Shown here in pieces: positions 6,274 to 18,025 of a stretch of DNA of 38,107 nt. The stretch is from Candidatus Altimarinota bacterium (lineage in GTDB: Bacteria > Patescibacteriota > Gracilibacteria > BD1-5 > UBA2023): assembly GCA_043756665.1 (NCBI GenBank), contig JAYUQR010000045.1:1-38107 (forward strand). The letters are read 5' to 3'. The notes below the pieces were generated by a model. That model ran no database searches. It was not told where the DNA came from and saw nothing but the letters and a program-made list of their open reading frames with translations. The stretch's first letter is position 1. Each line of letters begins with the position of its first letter. The position numbers were made by a program, and so were the translations under genes.

Positions 6274-7038
6274 TTAGTGATTATCATCCTTGGAGATCAG
6301 ATCCCATTTAGCGTCTGCACCATTATAGAAAAATAATAGATACATGGTCTTACTGATTATGGTTGTGGTTGGGAGGGTTGTATCTCCTCATCTGTATATA
6401 GCATTCCAAGTGATAGCACGGGCAGTACCATTATCTTTCATTCGTACTATGATGAGATTCCCATCGGCTGGAGTTCATGATGGAGCAGAGAATGTTGGAG
6501 CTACTGCGAGGGCTGTGATCGTCATATAGTTTCTGAGACTTCATCCAGTAGGTGTAGGAGTGGCACTCGATGCTGTGGTAGTATTCTCACTTATGACATT
6601 GCTCGATGCTATCATCGTCTTATTCGTGAGCGTATCAGTAGTAGCCCGACCGAGGAGTGTATCACTAGAGTCCTGGAGAGTATAGGTTCTATCTGCCGTA
6701 TTCGTATTCGTGAAAAAACTCGTGAATGTATTCGCTACATTACGAAGCCCGAACATGCCTGAGAGGAATGTTTTGAGTCATGATACGGTTTGAGTAGAGG
6801 CAAGGATCATATCGCCTGCTCACGCAGATACATTGAGTGTTGTTCCTGTGAAAGAAAGTCCTGTACCGAGTGTGATCTCCTCTATTGCTCCTGTGCCTGC
6901 TGTAGCACGCCCGAGGAGCTTATTGTTCGTTACACTATCCTCTTTTTTTGTAGTGTTGAGATTTGTGAAATTCGTATTGATAGTGCTTCGATCTGTGGCG
7001 ATAACGCCAGGTCCAAGAAGTGTAGTTATAGTACTCAT
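6274..7038 (-). CDS. tail fibre-like protein (254 aa)
   Basis: Track ORFs 6820..7038 and 6541..6756 are in one frame and join through TGA; stop TAA 6274-6276. It has a repeated LLGRAT motif (NNKLLGRATAGTGAIEEITLG and SDTLLGRATTDTLTNKT) of the kind seen in phage fibre proteins, plus a Thr/Ser-rich beta C-terminus. Confidence 0.7.
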
Positions 7039-7042
7039 ATTT

Positions 7043-7228
7043 TTAGATTATTGTTCTTCCTACGTAGGCGGTTAAGGCTGTTCATACGCCTGCTGTGTCC
7101 CAAGTATAGGTTGCTGTATCCCAAGTATCTGGACACGAGTCCCATGTGAAATAATTGAAGTCACCTGGCTTCATTCTTCATGCAGATGTCGTTGTCGGGA
7201 TGATTCTTCATACGTAAGGTGTAGGCAT
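7043..7228 (-). CDS. small Trp-repeat protein (61 aa)
   Basis: ATG 7228, TAA 7043-7045. Product MPTPYVGRIIPTTTSAGRMKPGDFNYFTWDSCPDTWDTATYTWDTAGVGTALTAYVGRTII has three TWD repeats. Confidence 0.5.
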
Positions 7229-7262: not shown

Positions 7263-10200
7263 TTATTTTTTAGGCTTTATGATGGGCTTATTTTTGATGA
7301 TGGGTTTAGGTTTTAGAAATTCTCATAATTTTTCTTTTATAGCTTTTTCTACTATCGGTTTTATTTTACTTTCAAATATTTCTTTATTCCATTGTGCTGC
7401 TTCTTCTCTAATTTTTATATGTCATTTTGACTCAGCAACATATTGTTCAATCATTCTTGCGGTTACTTCTTGTCTATTAGTATAATATTTTCTATTATTT
7501 TTAAATGCAATGGTATTTTTGTTCATTAACTCAGTAAGCTCATTTATTGTAGTATTATCAAATAGTTTTTTGTCTAATTTATAATCTATCGCGTGTCATA
7601 GCTCGTGAGCTACTGTTGTATGTATTTTCTCTTTAATTATTTTTCATTCAGCGTCTTTCATTACTCTTCAATATGTATCTAATTTTTCAAAAGATTCAGT
7701 TCATCAGACCGATATACTTACACTATTATTTTTTGTATCTTTTCTATATAATCAGGCTATATCTTTCATTAAAAAAGGATTTTTACCATTAAGATGTACA
7801 TACACCCATCTATCCATCTCAGCAAGTTTTTTCATATCTATTCCTAATGCCTCAGAAAAGTCTTTCACACCATTTATTATATCTGATTTTTGTTCAGTAG
7901 ATATAGTTTTTCAGTCTTGGCGTTTCATTCACGCTCAAATAGAATCTATATCATCAAATACTATACGTGAGTCATCCGCACCAAATGAAGTATTCAGTCA
8001 TTTTTCATATATTTCTCGTGATGTAACTGCCTTGGAAAATGACGGATCATATTTTATTATTTCATCTGGAAATTTATATCATTTTGATATATCGTTTTTA
8101 ATAAGCTCAGTATATTCTTTTTTTGAGCTTTCTTTAAAATAATCACTTGTATCAATTTGTCGTTGCCACATATCTGTTCTTCTTTCAAAAAGAGATTTTG
8201 CCTCATTAAATGTTTTTGCACTGCTACTATTAGCTTCTATGTTTGCCCATATTTTTCTATCTTCGATTATTGTTGGAGAGTTTAATTTTTCAGCCTGTAG
8301 TCTGGTAGGCATTTTCTCTCAATATTTTTTTATTAACTCGTCTACTTGTTTTGCCATTTTTCAGAATCCTTCTGCATTTCTATTAGCTTTTTTAATTTTT
8401 ACATCTATTACTCATTGTATTCACTCTTCTGGAGTTAATTTATGGTGTGCAACTCTATCTGGTGATATTCTTTTTGCTCCTACTCTTTTTGCTTCATCTC
8501 AAACATTTATATTTTCTGGCAATGTTTCTATAATTTTATTCTCAATAACTCCACCCTCTTTCACTATATTCTTAGGAGCTGGCTTCACGATAGGAGTGTT
8601 TTTAGTCTTTTTAGGTACTATGAGAGGTTCTGAGGGAGCGGATGGTGTAGTAGGCTTTTTAGTGATCATTCCATCCTTTCAAAAGCTTTCGAAAGAAGTA
8701 TCCATAATATCCATTCCCGTCTGCTTTTTGAATTGCTTTACCATATCATTCCATGTCTTCTCTCAAAATCTTCCGTCGTTTGCTATTTTTTGGAGTTTAT
8801 CATAGATCTGCTTGTCTGTGATCTTTTCTATCACCTCTGGAGCTTGTTTCTTATTGAGAAGATCATCAAACGCGTTTTTTATTTTTCACGATTTTATATC
8901 TGATATGAATTCATCGAGAAGATCCTTTTTTACATAGCTATATTCGAGACTTCCAGAGTCTACACTTTTCTTTATTTCGGAAAGTATTGAAAGAGCCTCA
9001 CTTTGTGTGATCTTTTTTTCTGATAAGAGGTTATTAATCTTAGTTTCTATGCGAGAGTTTCATGTGCCTCAGAATTGAGCCGCTTTTGTATCACTAGCAA
9101 TACCCCTCTTTATATCATTTATTTCCTTTGATTTTGCGACTTGAGAGGTTTTTGTTTGAGCTGGCAAAAGCCTTCTCGGTCATTGTCACTCGACCATAAC
9201 CCCCCGCTTTCATGCAAGGATTTTAGATTGATTTCCTTTAGGATTAAGTGGTGTTTCAATAGTTACCTTGGATGATCATGGAATATCGGAGGGCACACTT
9301 ACCACTGTTGGGGTTACATTTTCCCGTTTAGTACGAGGAATATTACCAGTATTATTGCTATTATGTATACCATCTTTAAAAAGGTTAGTGGGTATTTTTA
9401 CTTCTGCCTGTGTGCCTCTCCCAGAAAGTGCGTTTAATCCTTTGAGGTATCATCTCTTTACTATATTGGATTGTGCGATCTGTTTTGCTATAAAGACTGA
9501 AGGATCAGCATTGAACGCAAGCCAATCAGTCAATCATAGGGGATTGTTTCCTGCTATCTTATCTTGCCATCATCCTATACCTTCCATAAGCTTATAATAG
9601 GCTTTTGTATCCATATTTATGGCTTTCAGGTTTGAGAATCCCTGTTGTTCTGCTGTCGCAAATTGCCATTTTCTCACATCATTATCTAAATTCGTGACGA
9701 ATCATTTTCTTGGTGAAGTGTCGTCGCTAAAGTATGAGAACTTATTATTCGAGTTTAAGAACCTTTTAGCCTCATTTATTTCTGACATAGAGAGACCTTG
9801 TGTCTGATACTTTTCGAGAAGATCTTTAGCTCTTAGGCTTTCTTTACTCATTCATTTACTCGACGCATTTCCGAGATTATCCCTAAGCATTGTCTCTACA
9901 GGATCAACTTGCTTTGTGATATACTTTCATGTTTCCTTATCTATTGCTTCTGTAGCAACTTCTTGAGTCGGAGCCTTGAAATTTCACTTGATACTAGCAA
10001 GTCCATCATCTGCCGACTTTCGTGAAAGTTTAAGGTTTTTTGATAAATTTTCAACTAATTTTTCTCCAGTGTCACTTATTCATCGATCATTAAGAAATTT
10101 TCAAGGGCTCACTCCAATTTCTTCGTTAAATGAGCGGATCTGCCCTGCATTCATCCTATTTATATTTGTAGAGGCTATATCTGCTCTATTTTGTAGTCAT

Positions 10201-11114
10201 TTCTGGAGTCAATCTTTGATTCAATTTCAAGCTCATTGGAGATCACGAACTATAGACTTTCCTGCACCCTCAATCCCTCCATAATATCATGCCTTTCAAT
10301 ATTTCATTGTCTTAGAGGCTACTCATCATATTATTGGAGCTACTACTTTAGACATAACTGGTCATGCTACTGCTCCAGTAACTCATCATATTGCTGCCCC
10401 TTTTCATATATCCCATAAAGTAGCCTCATTCCCTTTATTTATAATCGGTGTAGCTCAACCGAATCATGTTCCTACTACTCCCGATCGAAATGCGAGATTT
10501 CAGAGTCATTTTGCTCAGGCTAGATATCCGCCTCATAGAGGAGCTGTGAGGGCTAATTGTCAGCCAAGTTTTCTCATGTCTATTTGCTTCTGTGTGAGTG
10601 GATTTGATCCACCATCTGTCATGCCTGCTTGTGTGACATCATTTCCTATATTTTGGAGGTTCTGTCAAAGATCATTAGCTCATTTTCAGAGTCAAGGCGT
10701 TATATAATCAAGTCATTCTCCTATTGTATTTCCTACGAATCAGAGTCAATTTCATACGATAGAAGGGATTTGTTCTCATGCCCTCACTATTCCTTTTCAT
10801 AATTCCTTTGCTCATCACCAAAATCAGAGATCAGGTCATTCTTTTGCCTGCTGTTTTTTATCCTGTAGGAATTGGAATACATCCTGTGCTGGGAGTCATT
10901 TACCTTTTGAGTAATCAATAAATGCAATATCTTTTTCGTCGAATCACATTGATTTGAATTGTGAGTTTCGATCTGTCTGTATAGGCGATTGTTGTACATT
11001 TTCAGGATATGTAGATCATGATGAGTTTTTTACAGGAGCATAGGCATTCTTTGTTATAGAGTCAAAGAGGTTAAATCCTGTATTTTTTGAGAATGTTGGT
11101 ACCTCGTATGACAT
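7263..11114 (-). CDS. giant virion-associated protein (1283 aa): Gly-zipper hydrophobic region plus C-terminal HExxH zincin-like domain; candidate ejection/polyvalent-type protein
   Basis: I translated every codon from ATG 11114 to TAA 7263-7265 and found no TAA/TAG but dozens of in-frame TGA. Glycine-zipper segments (…LGGQLALTAPLGGGYLAGAKGLG…GVVGTGFGGATPII…GAAIGGVTGAVAGPVMSKVVAPIIGGV…) lie near 10261-10620. TVAHELGHAID (HExxH) is at 7593-7607 with its Gly encoded by TGA 7596-7598. The plus-strand track ORF 8239..8805 is its antisense shadow. Confidence 0.85.
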
Positions 11115-11115
11115 A

Positions 11116-13965
11116 TTATTTATTGTAAAGAGACTCAAACGATGAATACATATCATTTAGGTTTGTATTCATATTTCCTTGCTGAGATTTGGTGATTCAC
11201 TTTTCCATATCGGAATTTCTATATATCTCAGAAATGTCATTTCCATTTTCATCACGTCATACTTCCTTTAATATTCAGAGTGTAGCGTTGTACCTATTTT
11301 TTCTTTTTTGATCTATAGCTGAGGCACTATCTCCTGATTGGGGAAAATATTGTTGTCTTGCATTCGCAAATTCAGGATCCGTAATCACCGCTCCTGATTC
11401 TTTACGCAGGTTTGCATTTATCCAATCTCTTTGTGCCTGTTCATACTTTTGCCTATCGTTTGTCTTCATCCAGTTAGGAGCCCATCCACTTGGGGCTAAA
11501 ATTTCTGTTGTAGCCCATGAGTTTTTATATTTATCTTCCATTGTCCTGATAGGATTTTCAGATTCTGACATACGAAGCCCGAATTTATATGAAGCCCTTG
11601 CTCATTCTGTAGTTTTTGGTGCGAGTACTACATCATATAGAGATTTCGGAGTATTAGCTCATCTATTGGAACGTACATAATTAGCAAGATCAGTATAAGA
11701 TAATCATGCCTTATTCATTGCATCTAGGTCTGATTTCGTTGGATTATTACCAATAATATCCATAAGATTCTTTTGATCCTGTGTGAATGCCTTTTGTGCT
11801 CCACTTGATGAATTAGTCAGTCCTTTCAAAAATGTCACCTGATCAGAATTCGAAAGAAGTTTTCAGTTTGATTTTATTTCTATATCGAGGTGTGCTCCTC
11901 TTCATTTCGCGAGCTGTTCGGCGGTGAGTGTTTCTCCACTTACTCCTCTCACATTTCCTGTATTGCCACGAGTTCCGACTATATCACCATAGCCGAGTAC
12001 ATCACCTTGTTTTACCCCTATATTTTCTAGGTGTGAGTATCTGATTTCATTTCCACTTTCGTCGGTCATGATAACAGAGTTTCAATATGGTTTCTTCATT
12101 CATGCCTTGTACGGCACTCAGAGCTCTCACGCTTTATCGATATATTTGACTGTCCAATTTCCACCTGCTGGCAAAGGATCTCATAGATTTCCTGCAAGAT
12201 CATAGCCTCGATTTCATTCATATGTTCCTACATTCTTTCCGAGAATATCAAGAAATGATTTACTCGATTGTATTTTTTGTTCGAGCTCTAGGGCTTTCGC
12301 CTTCTTTTCTGGATCATTTTCTATTTCGAATAAGAATTTTTCCCGAGCTGAGTCATTATTGAATTTAGCGAGTTGCATCTGCTGTGAAAAATTTCTTGTA
12401 TCTCTTTGATTTTCGACTTCATTTTGCATTTGAAATTTCTGTGCATCTGACAATTGCCCCTGTTGAAGGGATTGATATTTCTGATATGCTGGACTTGCTT
12501 GTATATTCTGCCCCATTTCAGTCAAGAACTCTGCAAGAGGTTTTCCACTCTTTTGAAACTCTGCGAGACGAGATTGTACTGTACTTGTAAATGGAATTCC
12601 GAGCTTTTTGTACTCGTTCATAATACTTTGTATGGCTGTTGCAGGATCACTCAATGCCTGCTGTGCTTGTTTACTTTCGAAGTCTGATTGGTACTGCATC
12701 ATATCTTTCTGAGCTTGTACTTGGCGTTGTTCACTTGCTATCTGACGTGACTGAGCCTGCTGATCTTTGTAGTTATCCATATTTAGCTGGAGGAGTGCTG
12801 TCGATTCTGCTTTGAGATTCGTATAAGTACCCATAGAGTTATTATATTCATCTATTGCGATCTGGTAGTCTTTGTACATTCCCTTTCTTCGGTCTGCTAC
12901 GATCTTAGCTTTAAATGAATCGGTTGTTTCTTTTCACTCGAATTCCTTGTCTACATCAGTTTCGACATTATCGTATACTGCCTTGATATTCTGATACTTA
13001 TTCTTTTTTTCTTCCACCGCTTTGCCTTGTGCCTGAACTGCCTCGTTATTCGTGAGAGCATTATATTCCTCCTGTGTCATTGTCCCATCTGCGAGGGCAT
13101 TAGCGACACTTGGATTGTTCGAGAGGATTATAGATGATTGCGTTGTTCCTATTTTTACCTCGTCTATATTTCCAGTGACAAAGGCTTTAGCTTTCTGGAG
13201 CTTTGTACTCATAGCAGGATCACTCATGAGATCATTATAGGTAGTAGTACCTTGTAGTAAGTCTCCACTATTGAGAGCTGTCGAGAGTGTCGCTGGATCC
13301 ATGAGAGAAAACCTCTTGAAAGTATTATATCGAGCATTTGCACTACGATATTCATTCGTATTTTGATTCTGGATAGGCTGTCATGCACGAATAGCCTGAA
13401 ATGTCTGATCTGCTGTCATGGCTATCGGTTGTCAGCCTGTGAATCCTGCATCGAGCATAGCCCGTTTTCCATCATCTGCCATATCATATCCGAAGGCTTT
13501 ATTATAAGCATTCCTATCTTTGAGAAGAGCGGGATTAGCTGTAGTTATCTCAGTAACATTCTTTTGTATCTCACTCTCTCTGCCTTGCGACTTATTATAG
13601 TCTATGACTGGATTTGTACTCACTTTTGTCTCACTTGGCCTTATTTCTTGAGCTACTGGAGCTACTGGAGCTTGTATTTGAGAAAGCCCTGTAGACTGAT
13701 CTATAGGTGCTTGTGTGAATTGTTCTCAGTTTACTCCCGTGACTGTCGGAGCTACTGGAGTTGGAGTGACTGGAGCTGGCGGTACGATAGGATTCGCTTG
13801 TCTTTCTGCCTGATTTTTAGCCAGTTGATCCTGATTGATCTGAGAATTTGGAGTGACTGGAGCTGGCGGAGTTATCTCACCATATGCCTGAGTTCTCGCT
13901 GTGACGGGATCAATTCCACTCTTTCTGAGTTTTATGAATTCATCTCGTGGATTAGTCGTTGCCAT
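11116..13965 (-). CDS. large Gln-rich coiled-coil protein with M23/LytM-like peptidase domain (949 aa); internal virion or tape-measure-like
   Basis: Track ORFs 13726..13965, 13432..13623, 12934..13302, 12214..12879 and 11275..11571 share one frame. All gaps translate without TAA/TAG. ATG 13965, TAA 11116-11118. The M23-like block is NRGYDLAGNLGDPLPAGGNWTV...YGNSVIMTDESGNEIRYSHLENIGVKQGDVLGYGDIVGTRGNTGN...GAHLDIEIKSNGKLL. Confidence 0.85.
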
Positions 13966-16900
13966 TGTTGGATTGATTAGATTTTATTTCAGATTCGATT
14001 TCATTGGCTTCTTTCTGTATTTGTGATTCGATGTCATTTTCTATCATGTCAGCCTCTTGTCCTATTATCTTCTCTATTTCGTCTTCTATATCATTTGCCT
14101 CATCTTCTATCATCTTTTTTATTTCTTCTTCACCATCGACAAGTTTTTTGGTGTTTTCATCTATCTTCTTTGTCTTTTGCCTCACGAGATTCCTCGTCAT
14201 GACATTATCTTCCTTCAATTCCTTTTTACTTCTCACTATATCACTGCATACCTCGATTTCTATTTCTTTTAGTGTATCAATTATATCGTCTTTCGCAAGA
14301 ACATTTTGTGACTGATTTTCATCTATTTTTTCTATGATTTCAGTGATGTCTACGTTCTCTATAGTTTTTACCTTTTCGAGGGTTTCTACTATGTTTTTTC
14401 GGTCTTGCATGCTGAATAATCAACCATTTCATCATCCACCTCCTCATCCAGTGATAGTTCTATTTGCATAATTCCATATTTGCTCTGGTGTTGCTCCTCC
14501 AGTGCTTGCAGAAAGAAATTTGACTCATCCATTGCTGTCATCCACTGCGATTCCATCTTGTCCTGTAGCGAATGCGAGGAGTGTTGCCTCTCCATCTCCT
14601 GCACTTCGTCTATAGAGTCTCCATCCGCTCGACATAAAGAGATAGTTCCCTCCGAACGATAGGAAGATACTACATTCTCATCGTACAGTTAACCATTTCA
14701 TGCCGAGATTCGTCATCAGAGCGGTCTCTGTCATATCGAACGCATTTTGTGCTGAAACAGATCAATCTCCTATTTGGATATTCGCTTGTGTTGTTCCTGA
14801 TATGACGATAGTACAGAGAACTGAGCTTGTACCCTGATACATGGCTGTACCGTCTGGATTGAGTTTCTGTGGTGTACTTGCTGATATATTGAACTGTCAT
14901 CCAGTGACTGGTGTGAAAGTCCCTACCTGATACGTATATCCTGCCTTTTTAACTACATATTTCCATGTGCCCGTGAGGACATTTGATAGGAAATAGTTAT
15001 ATGTTCCAGTGATACTCGCTTGGTAGTCCTTCTGTACACCTGTTTCATCTTCGAGATATATGGCGTGACCTGAGAGTCATGAGATATTCAGGTATCCTGT
15101 CTTTCCGTTTGAGGCTGTGATGATAGGAGTACTCGTCGAGGTTCCTGTGACTGTAAGAGTACCTGTCGTTGTGAGATTAGCAGTTCCAGTGAGATTAGCA
15201 TTCGTGAGAACGATATTGAAGGTAGAGGTATAGTTGATCGAGTCAGTCGTGACAAGTGGGATATTGAAATCCATATTCGCTATCTGCCCTCCCCACCGCT
15301 GAGAATAGGCGTAGAGCTCATCTTTAGTCCTATTCTCTGTTACTGTCATTGTATTAGTTGCTCCATTGATAGATATTCCTGTGATGAGTGAAGCCACTGC
15401 ATCATCGATAGCGACATAGAGAACCTGTGATATAGGCACTCCCTTTCCTTTCTGATATGTAGAGTCTGTCGAGATCACCTCTCCATATCCACTCTTTCGG
15501 ACTTTTACCTTGAATGGTTTTGCGAGAGCATCGAAATTATAGGGAAAATCGATAGTTATTGCATCGGCTGTGATGACTTGAGTTTTAACTGCTACTGGTG
15601 ATGCTGGTACAGTATTATCATAGAGTTTTATAGTAGAGCCATTTACTTGACCTGACACGAGAAGTGGCACAAAACCTATTTCTTCTGGTACCCATGCACT
15701 ATCTGGAGTACATGTCACGTATCCATAGTTGAATATTCGTGTCGCTCCTGCTGTTGTTGTCTTGATTCTAAAGCGAGGGAAAAATCCTTTTGTACTATTG
15801 TATCCCGTGAGTGATGCGAGAGCAGTCTGCCAGTTCGCTGATACTGTAGGATTGAACCATGATGTCCATGTCGAAATATCTGTACCATCATTATTGCGAA
15901 ATGATACTTCCATCGTAGCTCCTGCACTATTCATGAGTGAGTGAGTGATCACGGCTGTCGCTCAGGTAAAGTCTGTAATTCATCGCACGGGATACTCATT
16001 TGTATATATAACCTCCACTCCTGCACTCGGAGCATAGAATCCATTTCATGAATAATAAAAATCTACTCACTCGACTCCTGATGCGATCGTGACTCGCTTT
16101 GATTTGAGATCTTTAGAGAGTGGAGTAATACAGAGCCTTCCTGCTGTTTTCGCGTTATTCGTCCATATAGGCTGGAATGGATTAGAATCGACGATGACCG
16201 TACTCAAATAGACTCATGATGAGTTCATCACCCACTCTACATATGTTCCATTGATAGCTCCTGCCTGTGGTTGTGGAGTATTAGCATAGAGATTGGATAT
16301 TCGTGACTTTCCATAACTCGATGATCCTGTATAGAGTCATACTCTCGGATTTGAAACATTGATATTCGCGACGTATCATCTGGCTCATCCTGTAGCTATT
16401 GCAGTCGATGCGTTGGATTGCATATCATAGACTATATCTTTGACACAAAATTGATAGCTTGCTCCATCTGCTGTGATGAGAGATCCCCTTCATGAGACTC
16501 CATTTGTGAATTTTCTTGCTTTTGCAAGAGTGAAATTTTTACTCCCAAGTGATCCAAAGATTTGCCCTTGAAGTGTGTTCAATACCGCACGAGTATTATC
16601 ACTATGAGTGATCTCGTTGATATGGATATTATCGCACTCTCTGAGATAGAAAAATCCTCCGATATTATAAATCGGTCATAATATACAAGGAGCTTCCTCA
16701 CTGTTTAGGAGTGACTCGACCATGACGGGATAGCATCATGCTACCGTAGAGGATCCCCATCACCATATATTCGAGAATTGTTTCGGGGGTAGAGTATTAT
16801 AGACCTGTATTCATGGAGCATAGGTGCTTGTGGTCTTATACATTCCCCATATGAAATCATAATAATCGTTTCATGGGCTGTTCACCATACCGAAAGAGTA

Positions 16901-18025
16901 AGCACTACTTGCGAGAGCGAGACTTATATCTGGTCAGCTTACTACATTTGTCATGCGAGTCACTCATGACCACGATCAGGATTGAAATCTCTGACATGCG
17001 ACACTTGTCATAGTTATATCACCTGCTAGGGAGAAGTTGTTGATATTCCAGTTCGAAGAAAATGCACATATGCTCATAGTGGCGATAGATCCCAAAATGA
17101 CAGTGAGTGTATTTCTATTCGCAGGAGTAGGAGAATATACAGTTGAAGTGATATGGATATTCGGATAGAATACTCTCGCTCAGTTTGGTATTACCGCTCA
17201 TCCGTTCGATGTACCGACTGCACCACCATTTCAGAAAGTAGCTATTTTGGTTGTTCTATTGAATCTAAAGACTGGTCAGTGATCGAGATCACCGTGAAAT
17301 TCTGTATTGATATTAATATTTTGTACGTCGAAATCAGGAGCTGTATTGAGTCCATTACCAGGTCAGCAGTTAAAGAAGGGCATTGCATAGCAAGGCATTT
17401 GAGGTGGCGGAGGATTTGTGATATAGTAGTGACGAGTATCCCCTGTTTCTATCCATAGAGCTGTAGGCGAGTCTATGAGTCATCCCATGACAGTAGTGAA
17501 ATCTATAGTCTGTCATGCTGAACCTGTCCCAGTAGCTATATGTAGCCATCTTCCATCTGTGTTTATTTTATTTGTTGAGTATGTGATCCCTATATCTGCA
17601 TTCTCAGTATTGAGCTTGAGGACTATCGGAGTGGTAGTACTTGTATTACAGATATTGAGTGTACTTCTTGAGCCGAGTGTATTACATGTGATATTTCCTG
17701 GATTGATTGTATTTGACTCAGTGACATCGAGAGAACATCCACTCGTCATGTTCAATATTTCGCCTGCTATATAGGTGATTCCGTTTATATGAGCTCTTAG
17801 TTCTACGGTTGAAAATGTGATAGTTAGATCACCTGTTCCAACCAATCGCGTTAGAGTGCTTCCAGAAGTCACTGAATTCGCTACCGCAGTACAATAGAGC
17901 CTTGTCCCTGCAGAAAGTGTTTTCCTCACCGTATATGTGACTCAGTTGTTTGTATACGTATCTCCTACCGTTGCATTGGCAGAGGTCACCGTGAACATGT
18001 AGTAGGTATTGTTTACGGTTGCCAT
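13952..18025 (-). CDS. tail fibre / tailspike-like protein (1357 aa) with Gly-run hinge and acidic coiled-coil C-terminus
   Basis: Track ORFs 17513..17929, 15077..15952 and 13952..14410 are in the same frame. I translated all intervening sequence and found no TAA/TAG. The first ATG after the upstream TAG is 18025 (alternative 17998); stop TAA 13952-13954. The product is Thr/Ser/Asn-rich beta-type sequence. It includes a TGTWKYVVKKAGYTYQVGTF beta-sandwich-like segment and ...ATPEQIWNYANRTITGGGGGGGNGGLFSMQDRK... before a 152-aa acidic tail. Confidence 0.8.

Follow-up and report, generated by a model that had tools for sequence, protein, structure and literature searches.

A zincin-like metallopeptidase module at the C-terminus of a putative polyvalent ejection protein from a code-25 phage

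A 38,107-nucleotide (nt) stretch of DNA, analyzed here as a whole and referred to as the window (contig JAYUQR010000045.1 of the Candidatus Altimarinota assembly GCA_043756665.1), carries on its reverse strand a gene of 1283 codons which is read with genetic code 25, in which TGA encodes glycine. We report that its product ends in a module which sequence comparisons and models of homologues identify as a zincin-like metallopeptidase with its predicted active-site set intact (His1107, H1170-E-x-x-H1174, Asp1177, and Glu1216), and that this late gene is coupled to a hydrolase-bearing partner gene in an SU10-like phage. The 1283-amino acid (aa) protein is probably a phage-type polyvalent protein, large and built of several modules, which travels inside the virion and enters the host together with the DNA. 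A polyvalent protein with a zincin-like metallopeptidase is of a kind described computationally in 2017 (PMC5512222). What is new is not the principle, it is the setting: a code-25 SU10-like phage of candidate phyla radiation (CPR) bacteria, the ejection-protein slot, the pairing with a swappable lysin, and an unannotated N-terminal architecture. Very little is known about entry and host takeover by phages of CPR bacteria. Once correctly translated, the gene suggests that these phages use the polyvalent-protein strategy of other phages, and it defines a conserved unannotated N-terminal module as well as a clade, found in metagenomes only, of zinc protease of the injected type; the value of the finding lies in annotation and in an entry point for experiments.

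Conservation and predicted fold of the protease module

A search with the full-length protein matched 17 other proteins, 16 of which come from TGA-recoded contigs and share the Gly-rich N-terminal part, the middle ("mid") module, or both. The 17th, P0004, is a 1834-aa standard-code protein with the Pfam domain LPD38; it was the sole match of this first search to carry the C-terminal module, and it also showed weak similarity to the Gly-rich N-terminus. A second search added nine more proteins with the protease module, including the stand-alone ~400-aa proteins P0022 and P0024, and a profile search with the ~410-aa module against 1.84 billion cluster representatives recovered 283 of them at E<=1e-3. 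Among 154 proteins matching the module profile 81 were longer than 1000 aa, the longest reaching 7054 aa, and in the giants sampled the module was accompanied by LPD38 (P0004), by InPase, LPD3, and ddrB-ParB (P0073), by GNAT and DnaJ, or by RadC/JAB. These co-domains, together with the LPD1 matches reported below, bear out the link to polyvalent phage proteins which had been made in the initial annotation of this DNA.

Conserved residues were counted among the 154 profile matches. An HExxH followed by a helix with E..AR was present in 134 of the 154 module regions; six further regions had HExxxH with E..AR, and another 11 had HExxH and stopped short of the E..AR helix. The equivalent of His1107 was His in 146/148 aligned homologues and that of Asp1177 was Asp in 133/134 homologues with both motifs, and the Glu and Arg of E..AR, which in the 1283-aa protein include Glu1216 within the peptide QEVTARMIEQYV, were found in all 125 aligned homologues covering the motif. 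As judged from these alignments the HExxH is a conserved part of the module and not a chance motif of a long protein. The initial annotation had described it as a "minimal" metallopeptidase signature; this understates a module of ~410 aa with at least six nearly invariant residues, whose His and Glu residues are kept by the homologues.

The module is found in different settings. P0053, a recoded protein of 1242 aa, carries it at the C-terminus with 62% identity over the catalytic subdomain, and the N-terminal part of P0053 gave no BLAST match to the 1283-aa protein. In P0004, L007, and L008, which are 1834-1998 aa long, it is internal and spans aa ~375-785. P0004 and L007, both with LPD38, combine a Gly-rich N-terminal segment and the protease module under the standard code, so that the earlier statement that this combination looks undescribed was too strong, all the more since the protease matches a clade described in 2017. 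Close standard-code copies of the module are on contigs binned with Candidatus Peribacteria metagenome-assembled genomes (MAGs), with one on a Candidatus Paceibacterota MAG, and four viral contigs of IMG/VR, of which one is TGA-recoded, encode giants of 1683-1998 aa. A tblastn search of 50,697 deposited phage genomes gave no match to the module; a protease of a distant clade likewise had no tblastn match in these genomes or in 72,556 plasmids.

AlphaFold models were obtained for the P0004 module (405 aa; predicted local distance difference test, pLDDT, 79.6) and for the catalytic subdomain of P0019 (pLDDT 90.9 and predicted template modelling score, pTM, 0.88 with a 34-sequence alignment), the latter being 56% identical to the 1283-aa protein over 216 aa. 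The P0019 model consists of an N-terminal helix, a beta-sheet (residues 52-105), the HExxH helix (107-120), and the Glu helix (155-170), with the invariant His at the end of strand 52-57. This predicted topology is that of a zincin core, so the fold anticipated in the initial annotation was recovered at the level of a modelled homologue. When the P0019 model was searched against the Protein Data Bank (PDB), the best match was 4l7a, a putative Zn metallopeptidase (E = 0.013, prob 0.94, template modelling score, TM, 0.45), followed by anthrax lethal factor, GtgA, CapP, and collagenase G. In a library of viral predicted structures the top match was S5VLA8 (E = 2e-5, TM 0.65), with further matches to a [quoted passage not shown], to IrrE-N, to SprT-like proteins, and to a "Lethal factor". 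The whole 405-aa P0004 module had given non-significant fold matches only, because its helical half diluted the signal; the matches of the P0019 model were obtained once the catalytic subdomain was modelled by itself from a deeper alignment.

Sequence-level comparisons were fainter. A sequence profile matched snake-venom metalloproteinases alone in PDB, aligned at the HExxH and with marginal values (E = 0.05-1.5), and a single-sequence phmmer search of PDB sequences with the C-terminal 330 aa returned nothing. In Pfam the LPD1 model matched the 1283-aa protein in the Glu-helix region only, at 14.5 bits against a cut-off of 27 (E = 0.037); it was detected at E<=0.05 in 29/34 family members, with a best value of 7.4e-6, and the other Pfam matches among the 34 were mainly to zincin families (ATLF in 3/34; M90, M91, and reprolysin in a few). 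No curated Pfam model exceeded its gathering cut-off for the protease module, and neither PHROGs nor NCBIfam had a usable match to the 1283-aa protein. The assignment as a zincin is therefore made from several independent lines which converge and not from any single strong match.

Genetic code and start of the gene

As initially annotated, the gene is a single table-25 open reading frame (ORF), in which the 73 in-frame TGA codons are accompanied by no other internal stop. Throughout the window long ORFs appear only if TGA is read as sense, and together they make up a typical late phage operon. The meaning of TGA was addressed by aligning the C-terminal module with eight standard-code homologues: in its 18 TGA columns 87 of the 114 aligned residues were Gly and 0/114 were Trp, and in the TGG columns of the same test Trp was found in 17/28. 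Because TGA columns align with Gly and never with Trp, TGA was taken as Gly (code 25), and the same column test rules out Trp (code 4), the reading under which the protein was deposited publicly (P0001). It should be noted that P0001, which is 94% identical to the code-25 translation, also starts 14 codons further upstream, and that the public records of other family members are mostly Trp-rich mistranslations too, which hides their domains from family searches. We took as the start the ATG at 11114, which is 1 nt past the TAA of the 949-aa gene, and not the in-frame ATG at 11156, which would give a 41-nt overlap with that gene. No tRNA genes were found in the window, which therefore supplies neither a suppressor nor a Gly-tRNA(UCA), nor were terminal direct or inverted repeats found there; neither result adds a clue on the code or on the genome ends.

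The use of TGA was uneven when its share of the Gly codons was compared among the late genes (window 5378-27048, reverse strand). TGA accounted for 73/126 (58%) in the 1283-aa gene and for 22/48 in the 479-aa gene, for just 1/22 in the putative major capsid gene, and for 2/12 in a scaffold-like gene. This may be expression-level codon choice.

The Gly-rich module and its changing partners

The peptides quoted in the initial annotation are all present, as is the HExxH at 7593-7607; the three Gly-rich ones, LGGQLALTAPLGGGYLAGAKGLG, GVVGTGFGGATPII, and GAAIGGVTGAVAGPVMSKVVAPIIGGV, are at aa 183-205, 212-225, and 239-265. The Gly-rich module is common, at least in part, to 15 code-25 phage proteins, and it matches the N-termini of the standard-code giants P0004 and L007 at 24-31% identity. 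In a four-sequence alignment which includes standard-code giants (~31% identity) the series G239-x3-G243-x3-G247, followed by two Pro, is invariant, which indicates that the segment around these glycines is under selection. The hydropathy maximum of the module falls in aa 239-268; within aa 86-300 three windows have a mean hydropathy above 0.9 and two stretches of 18-19 aa are free of charge. Insertion of this module into a membrane is a reasonable inference, and to that extent the "glycine-zipper membrane region" of the initial annotation is plausible; the zipper itself did not stand out, since GxxxG and GxxxGxxxG counts in aa 86-300 were not above those of composition-preserving shuffles (z = 0.7 and 0.1), and hydropathy is borderline. 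Neither the N-terminal nor the mid module had a tblastn match among the 50,697 deposited phage genomes. When a 5.8-billion-protein index was searched with a profile of the Gly-rich module, no match reached E<=1e-3; the likely cause is that Gly-rich words crowded out the candidates.

Proteins with the Gly-rich part form a family from code-25 phages with SU10-like portal and adaptor. Its members range from 713 to 1283 aa, have different middle and C-terminal modules, and differ from one another by whole modules, and most of them are without any protease. The mid module was matched by phmmer in 13 further family or giant proteins, including P0123 and P0047, and by BLAST also in P0061 and P0064; these four named proteins each have both the mid and the protease module. 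Some other members have a different mid module in place of aa 317-645, and no Pfam, PHROG, or NCBIfam model matched the mid module. C-terminal ends in ...KPKK which resemble the KPKPIIKNKPIIKPKK tail of the 1283-aa protein occur in P0008 and P0012, both of which are without the protease module. Taken together, the sequence comparisons show the Gly-rich N-terminal module as the constant part of the family, with middle and C-terminal modules which are swapped between phages.

The cargo of the sister proteins was explored by scanning their C-terminal regions against Pfam after a crude W-to-G back-correction. P0009 had LPD23 at 41.4 bits, above the cut-off, followed by a different HExxH domain; sub-threshold matches were to ART-PolyVal (P0003), PARP/Tox-ART (P0018), ParB_N (P0002), and YopX (P0007). 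From these matches the sister cargo would be of the kinds typical of polyvalent proteins. The family also shares a short motif, P[ILV][ILV][KT]P (e.g., KPIVKP), which is ~20-fold commoner in it than in other giants and lies mostly near module junctions or the C-terminus. In the 1283-aa protein it occurs at aa 841-845 (8592-8606) and aa 1277-1281 (7272-7286), both on the reverse strand, and other carriers in the family are P0002, P0007, P0008, P0012-P0015, and P0017. The motif may join cassettes, serve as a flexible linker, or mark a cleavage site.

Genomic context and the partner gene

On the same strand as the 1283-aa gene the window encodes a terminase (PHROG matches), an SU10-type portal (SU10_portal, 37.9 bits), and an SU10-type adaptor (SU10_adaptor, 29.9 bits), both Pfam scores being above the respective cut-offs. 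The late genes of this strand include a capsid-like gene, the 479-aa gene, a 1357-aa fibre-like gene, and the gene of the 949-aa M23 protein, which is followed by the 1283-aa gene. The M23-like assignment of this upstream neighbor, made in the initial annotation, was confirmed by Pfam. In six related contigs the family gene comes 1-6 nt after a gene of 839-943 aa, and the order in the window and in these contigs is adaptor, a gene of ~480-600 aa, further genes, the partner gene of ~840-950 aa, and the family gene. Matches of SU10-type adaptor and/or portal, some of them weak, were found on L002, L012, L013, and L014; on L012 and L013 packaging-like genes come next, each with an SU10_portal match, and on L013 a gene with a faint terminase-type match precedes the SU10_portal gene.

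For three of the partners on the six contigs, homology to the 949-aa protein was detected over the N-terminal half. The hydrolase of the partner is of the M23 type in the window, CHAP in L003 (7186-9999), and VanY/M15 in L011 (1900-4419), so that the partner keeps a homologous N-terminal half and exchanges its wall-hydrolase domain between related phages. Podovirus ejection proteins are typically recognized by such a pair of large late proteins, one of which bears a swappable wall hydrolase, and the position proposed for the gene in the initial annotation is thus well founded: it follows a wall-hydrolase protein, accompanies an SU10-type portal and adaptor, and is kept in six contigs. The P0004 gene is placed between a fragment with a weak SU10_portal match and a clear SU10-type capsid gene, a position typical of head-internal proteins.

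Comparison with known systems

Among the closest described systems are the zincin-like metallopeptidase (MPTase) domains of phage-type polyvalent proteins (Iyer, Burroughs, Anand, de Souza, and Aravind, 2017, J Bacteriol; PMC5512222). The widely distributed phage-type MPTase has a His ending strand 2, an Asp three residues past the HEXXH, and a related set with HEXXXH, and several of the co-domains which we saw in giants are listed as specific to phage-type polyvalent proteins (PMC5512222). The module described here shares with these MPTases the HExxH helix after a small beta-sheet, the Glu on a later helix, the His at a strand end (whose strand number in the P0019 model agrees with the "strand 2" of the published description), the Asp at +3, the HExxxH variants among its relatives, and the setting in multi-domain phage proteins of 1000-7000 aa with LPD38, LPD3, InPase, and ddrB-ParB. 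Pfam LPD1 (PF18796) overlaps a portion of this region. The module differs from the described MPTases in that no Pfam cut-off is reached and in that the ~190-aa helical half of the module is unannotated; moreover, it ends a protein of a tail/ejection gene block in a code-25 phage.

SU10 itself encodes gp20-24 downstream of its tail genes; these proteins exit the capsid when the genome is released, and peptidoglycan is degraded by gp20 (PMC9509320). The likeness extends to large proteins encoded after the tail genes, to the SU10-type portal and adaptor, to one member with a peptidoglycan hydrolase (a transglycosylase in SU10 gp20, M23 in the window, and CHAP or VanY on related contigs), and to hydrophobic segments which could contact the membrane. 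Sequence comparison detected no similarity of the 1283-aa protein to annotated ejection proteins, its place in the virion is a predicted one, and SU10 gp20-24 have not been described as carrying effector-type cargo at the C-terminus. A similar logic holds for the MuF polymorphic toxins of temperate phages (Jamet et al., 2017; PMC5576092), in which the N-terminal part is conserved and linked to the virion, whereas the C-terminal domain, enzymatic or toxic, varies and is exchanged among related phages; the present gene differs in lying in the tail/ejection block and not beside the portal, and no Phage_Mu_F/MuF domain was matched by Pfam at E<=1 in the 1283-aa protein. As to bacterial zincins, anthrax lethal factor, Salmonella GtgA, and Bacteroides BACCAC_01431 (PDB 4l7a) were the best structural matches of the catalytic subdomain; with identities of 11-16%, TM of 0.3-0.45, and E of 0.01-0.7 this is a fold-level resemblance only. 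A paper which describes code-25 phages of Absconditabacteria and Gracilibacteria (PMC10746230) contains neither the word "polyvalent" nor the word "peptidase".

Proposed role of the protein in infection

We favor the reading that the 1283-aa protein and its 949-aa partner would be packaged in the virion and ejected on infection. The hydrolase-bearing partner would open the cell wall, the Gly-rich module would serve packaging and ejection as well as contact with or insertion into the host membrane, and the C-terminal protease would be delivered as cargo to act in the first moments of infection. As for the substrate, we lean towards host proteins, of defence or of the envelope, because the terminal position holds other cargo in the sister proteins and most members are without a protease.

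Several results weigh against this reading. No Pfam, PHROG, or NCBIfam model matches aa 1-860, and because no known family covers this part the term ejection protein is taken from gene position and analogy. Three of the five partner regions scanned were without a hydrolase match (the L014 partner lay outside the scan). The GxxxG periodicity of the Gly-rich module is no higher than composition predicts, and its Kyte-Doolittle 19-residue maximum of 1.58 (aa 248-266, with a Lys within) is borderline for a transmembrane helix. The structures are models of homologues (the P0004 module and the P0019 subdomain) and not of the 1283-aa protein itself, their fold-search statistics against solved structures are modest, as the values for 4l7a show, and Pfam MPTase-PolyVal is not among the matches at E<=1. 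Finally, the sister cargo matches, LPD23 aside, are below the Pfam cut-offs and derive from crudely corrected sequences.

Self-processing is also a live alternative. Here the protease would serve maturation alone, cutting its own polypeptide and perhaps the partner at Pro/Lys-rich linkers, either within the capsid or shortly after it is ejected, so as to release the modules, and would have no host substrate. Processing is the main role proposed for the MPTases of polyvalent proteins, with support from the processing of P1 DdrB (PMC5512222); the internal position of the module in P0004, L007, and L008 suits a cutting role, and the PIVKP-type linkers of the family tend toward module junctions. 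However, both the 1283-aa protein and P0053 end with the protease, in the position where the sisters carry other cargo (weakly ADP-ribosyltransferase- or ParB-like), and since most family members are without a protease, processing can be no general requirement of the family. We regard a role restricted to self-processing as somewhat unlikely.

Within the reading of a packaged, host-directed protein a bolder version can be formulated, which we consider speculative and rather doubtful. The end of the tail module would in that case be a two-slot "weapon rack" in phages of code-25 and related CPR hosts (Absconditabacteria, Gracilibacteria, and Peribacteria), one slot, the upstream partner, holding swappable wall enzymes (M23, CHAP, VanY) and the other swappable injected effectors (the zincin protease, ADP-ribosyltransferases, a ParB-like nuclease) behind a constant, so far unannotated Gly-rich anchor for ejection or the membrane, with PIVKP-type linkers as joints or cleavage sites and with the protease as an injected anti-host effector. 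If this were true, the protease would be tuned to the unusual biology of episymbiotic hosts.

It is improbable that the protein is instead a late cytoplasmic or secreted effector not associated with the virion, acting for example on the envelope at lysis or on neighboring cells. Polyvalent-protein domains do occur as solo genes near structural genes (PMC5512222), which would fit such a role. Against this, the gene is separated by 1 nt from its hydrolase-bearing partner and lies on the same strand as all of the structural genes, six contigs retain the gene pair where the tail module ends, and inspection of the translation showed no evident signal peptide-like N-terminus. Tape-measure proteins, too, are typically large, with Gly-rich hydrophobic segments and a gene which closes the tail block; a tape-measure or purely structural tail protein, with the Gly-rich stretch as its customary membrane segment and the HExxH domain as a wall-degrading accessory or as decoration, is nevertheless very improbable, and we reject it on the short-tail context and the module swapping between family members, given that the portal and adaptor are of the SU10 short-tail type, that the proteins scanned against Pfam, PHROGs, and NCBIfam matched no tail tube, sheath, or tape-measure family, that whole-module differences over a range of 713-1283 aa are unlike a length-determining ruler, and that the protease module also occurs stand-alone (~400 aa, P0022 and P0024) and in head-module giants.

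Features of the gene and neighboring genes

Table 1. Features of the 1283-aa gene and of its partner in the window. Module borders of the 1283-aa protein were drawn from pairwise (BLAST/phmmer) and profile comparisons.
Feature	Coordinates	Strand	Description
Whole gene	7263..11114	-	1283 codons + TAA, code 25, 73 TGA = Gly
N-terminal leader, aa 1-85	10860..11114	-	Little conserved in the family; BLAST/phmmer boundaries
Gly-rich module, aa 86-300	10215..10859	-	24% Gly, moderately hydrophobic, family-defining
Mid module, aa 317-645	9180..10166	-	Conserved, helical-looking, function unassigned; phmmer/BLAST matches
Module B, aa 650-823	8646..9167	-	Common to just four family members: P0007, P0008, P0012, P0013
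Pro/Lys-rich linker, aa 824-860	8535..8645	-	Has TPIVKP; junction to the protease module
Helical N-terminal half of protease module, aa 861-1050	7965..8534	-	Conserved VGAKRIsPDRvxHxxLTPE; alignments
Catalytic zincin-like subdomain, aa 1051-1267	7314..7964	-	P0019 model, fold matches, LPD1/zincin Pfam hints
His1107	7794..7796	-	End of beta-strand WVYVH
HELGH, aa 1170-1174	7593..7607	-	Putative: two zinc-binding His and catalytic Glu, from the zincin paradigm
Asp1177	7584..7586	-	3 residues past the second His of HELGH
Glu1216 of QEVTAR	7467..7469	-	Predicted third zinc ligand; second helix after the sheet; weak LPD1 region
Basic C-terminal tail, aa 1268-1283	7266..7313	-	KPKPIIKNKPIIKPKK
Upstream partner gene, 949 aa	11116..13965	-	Stop 1 nt before the start of the 1283-aa gene
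Peptidase_M23 in 949-aa protein, aa 586-702	11860-12210	-	36.5 bits, cut-off 28.7

Some further observations concern the genes around this pair. The 1357-aa fibre-like protein (13952-18025, reverse strand) has an acidic, repeat-rich C-terminal tail (aa ~1217-1338) after a GGGGGGGNGG run, and this tail is homologous to a separate 117-aa gene of L003 (6829-7182), so that a small gene appears to have been fused in the window or split in L003. On the other side of the 1283-aa gene a 224-nt gap separates it from the gene of a 254-aa fibre-like protein; most of this gap is taken up by a 61-codon code-25 ORF (7043-7228, reverse strand; MPTPYVGRIIPTTTSAGRM...) with three in-frame TGA, which was read by eye. 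The AT skew of the window changes sign near 2-3 kb and at ~30 kb, which agrees with coding-strand switches at both ends of the late operon. The 254-aa protein (6274-7038, reverse strand), which is Thr/Ser-rich, is 81% identical to its counterpart at 13805-14464 of L003, whereas the neighboring large genes reach just 30-40% against the same contig, and this high identity suggests a recent exchange or a shared receptor-binding part.

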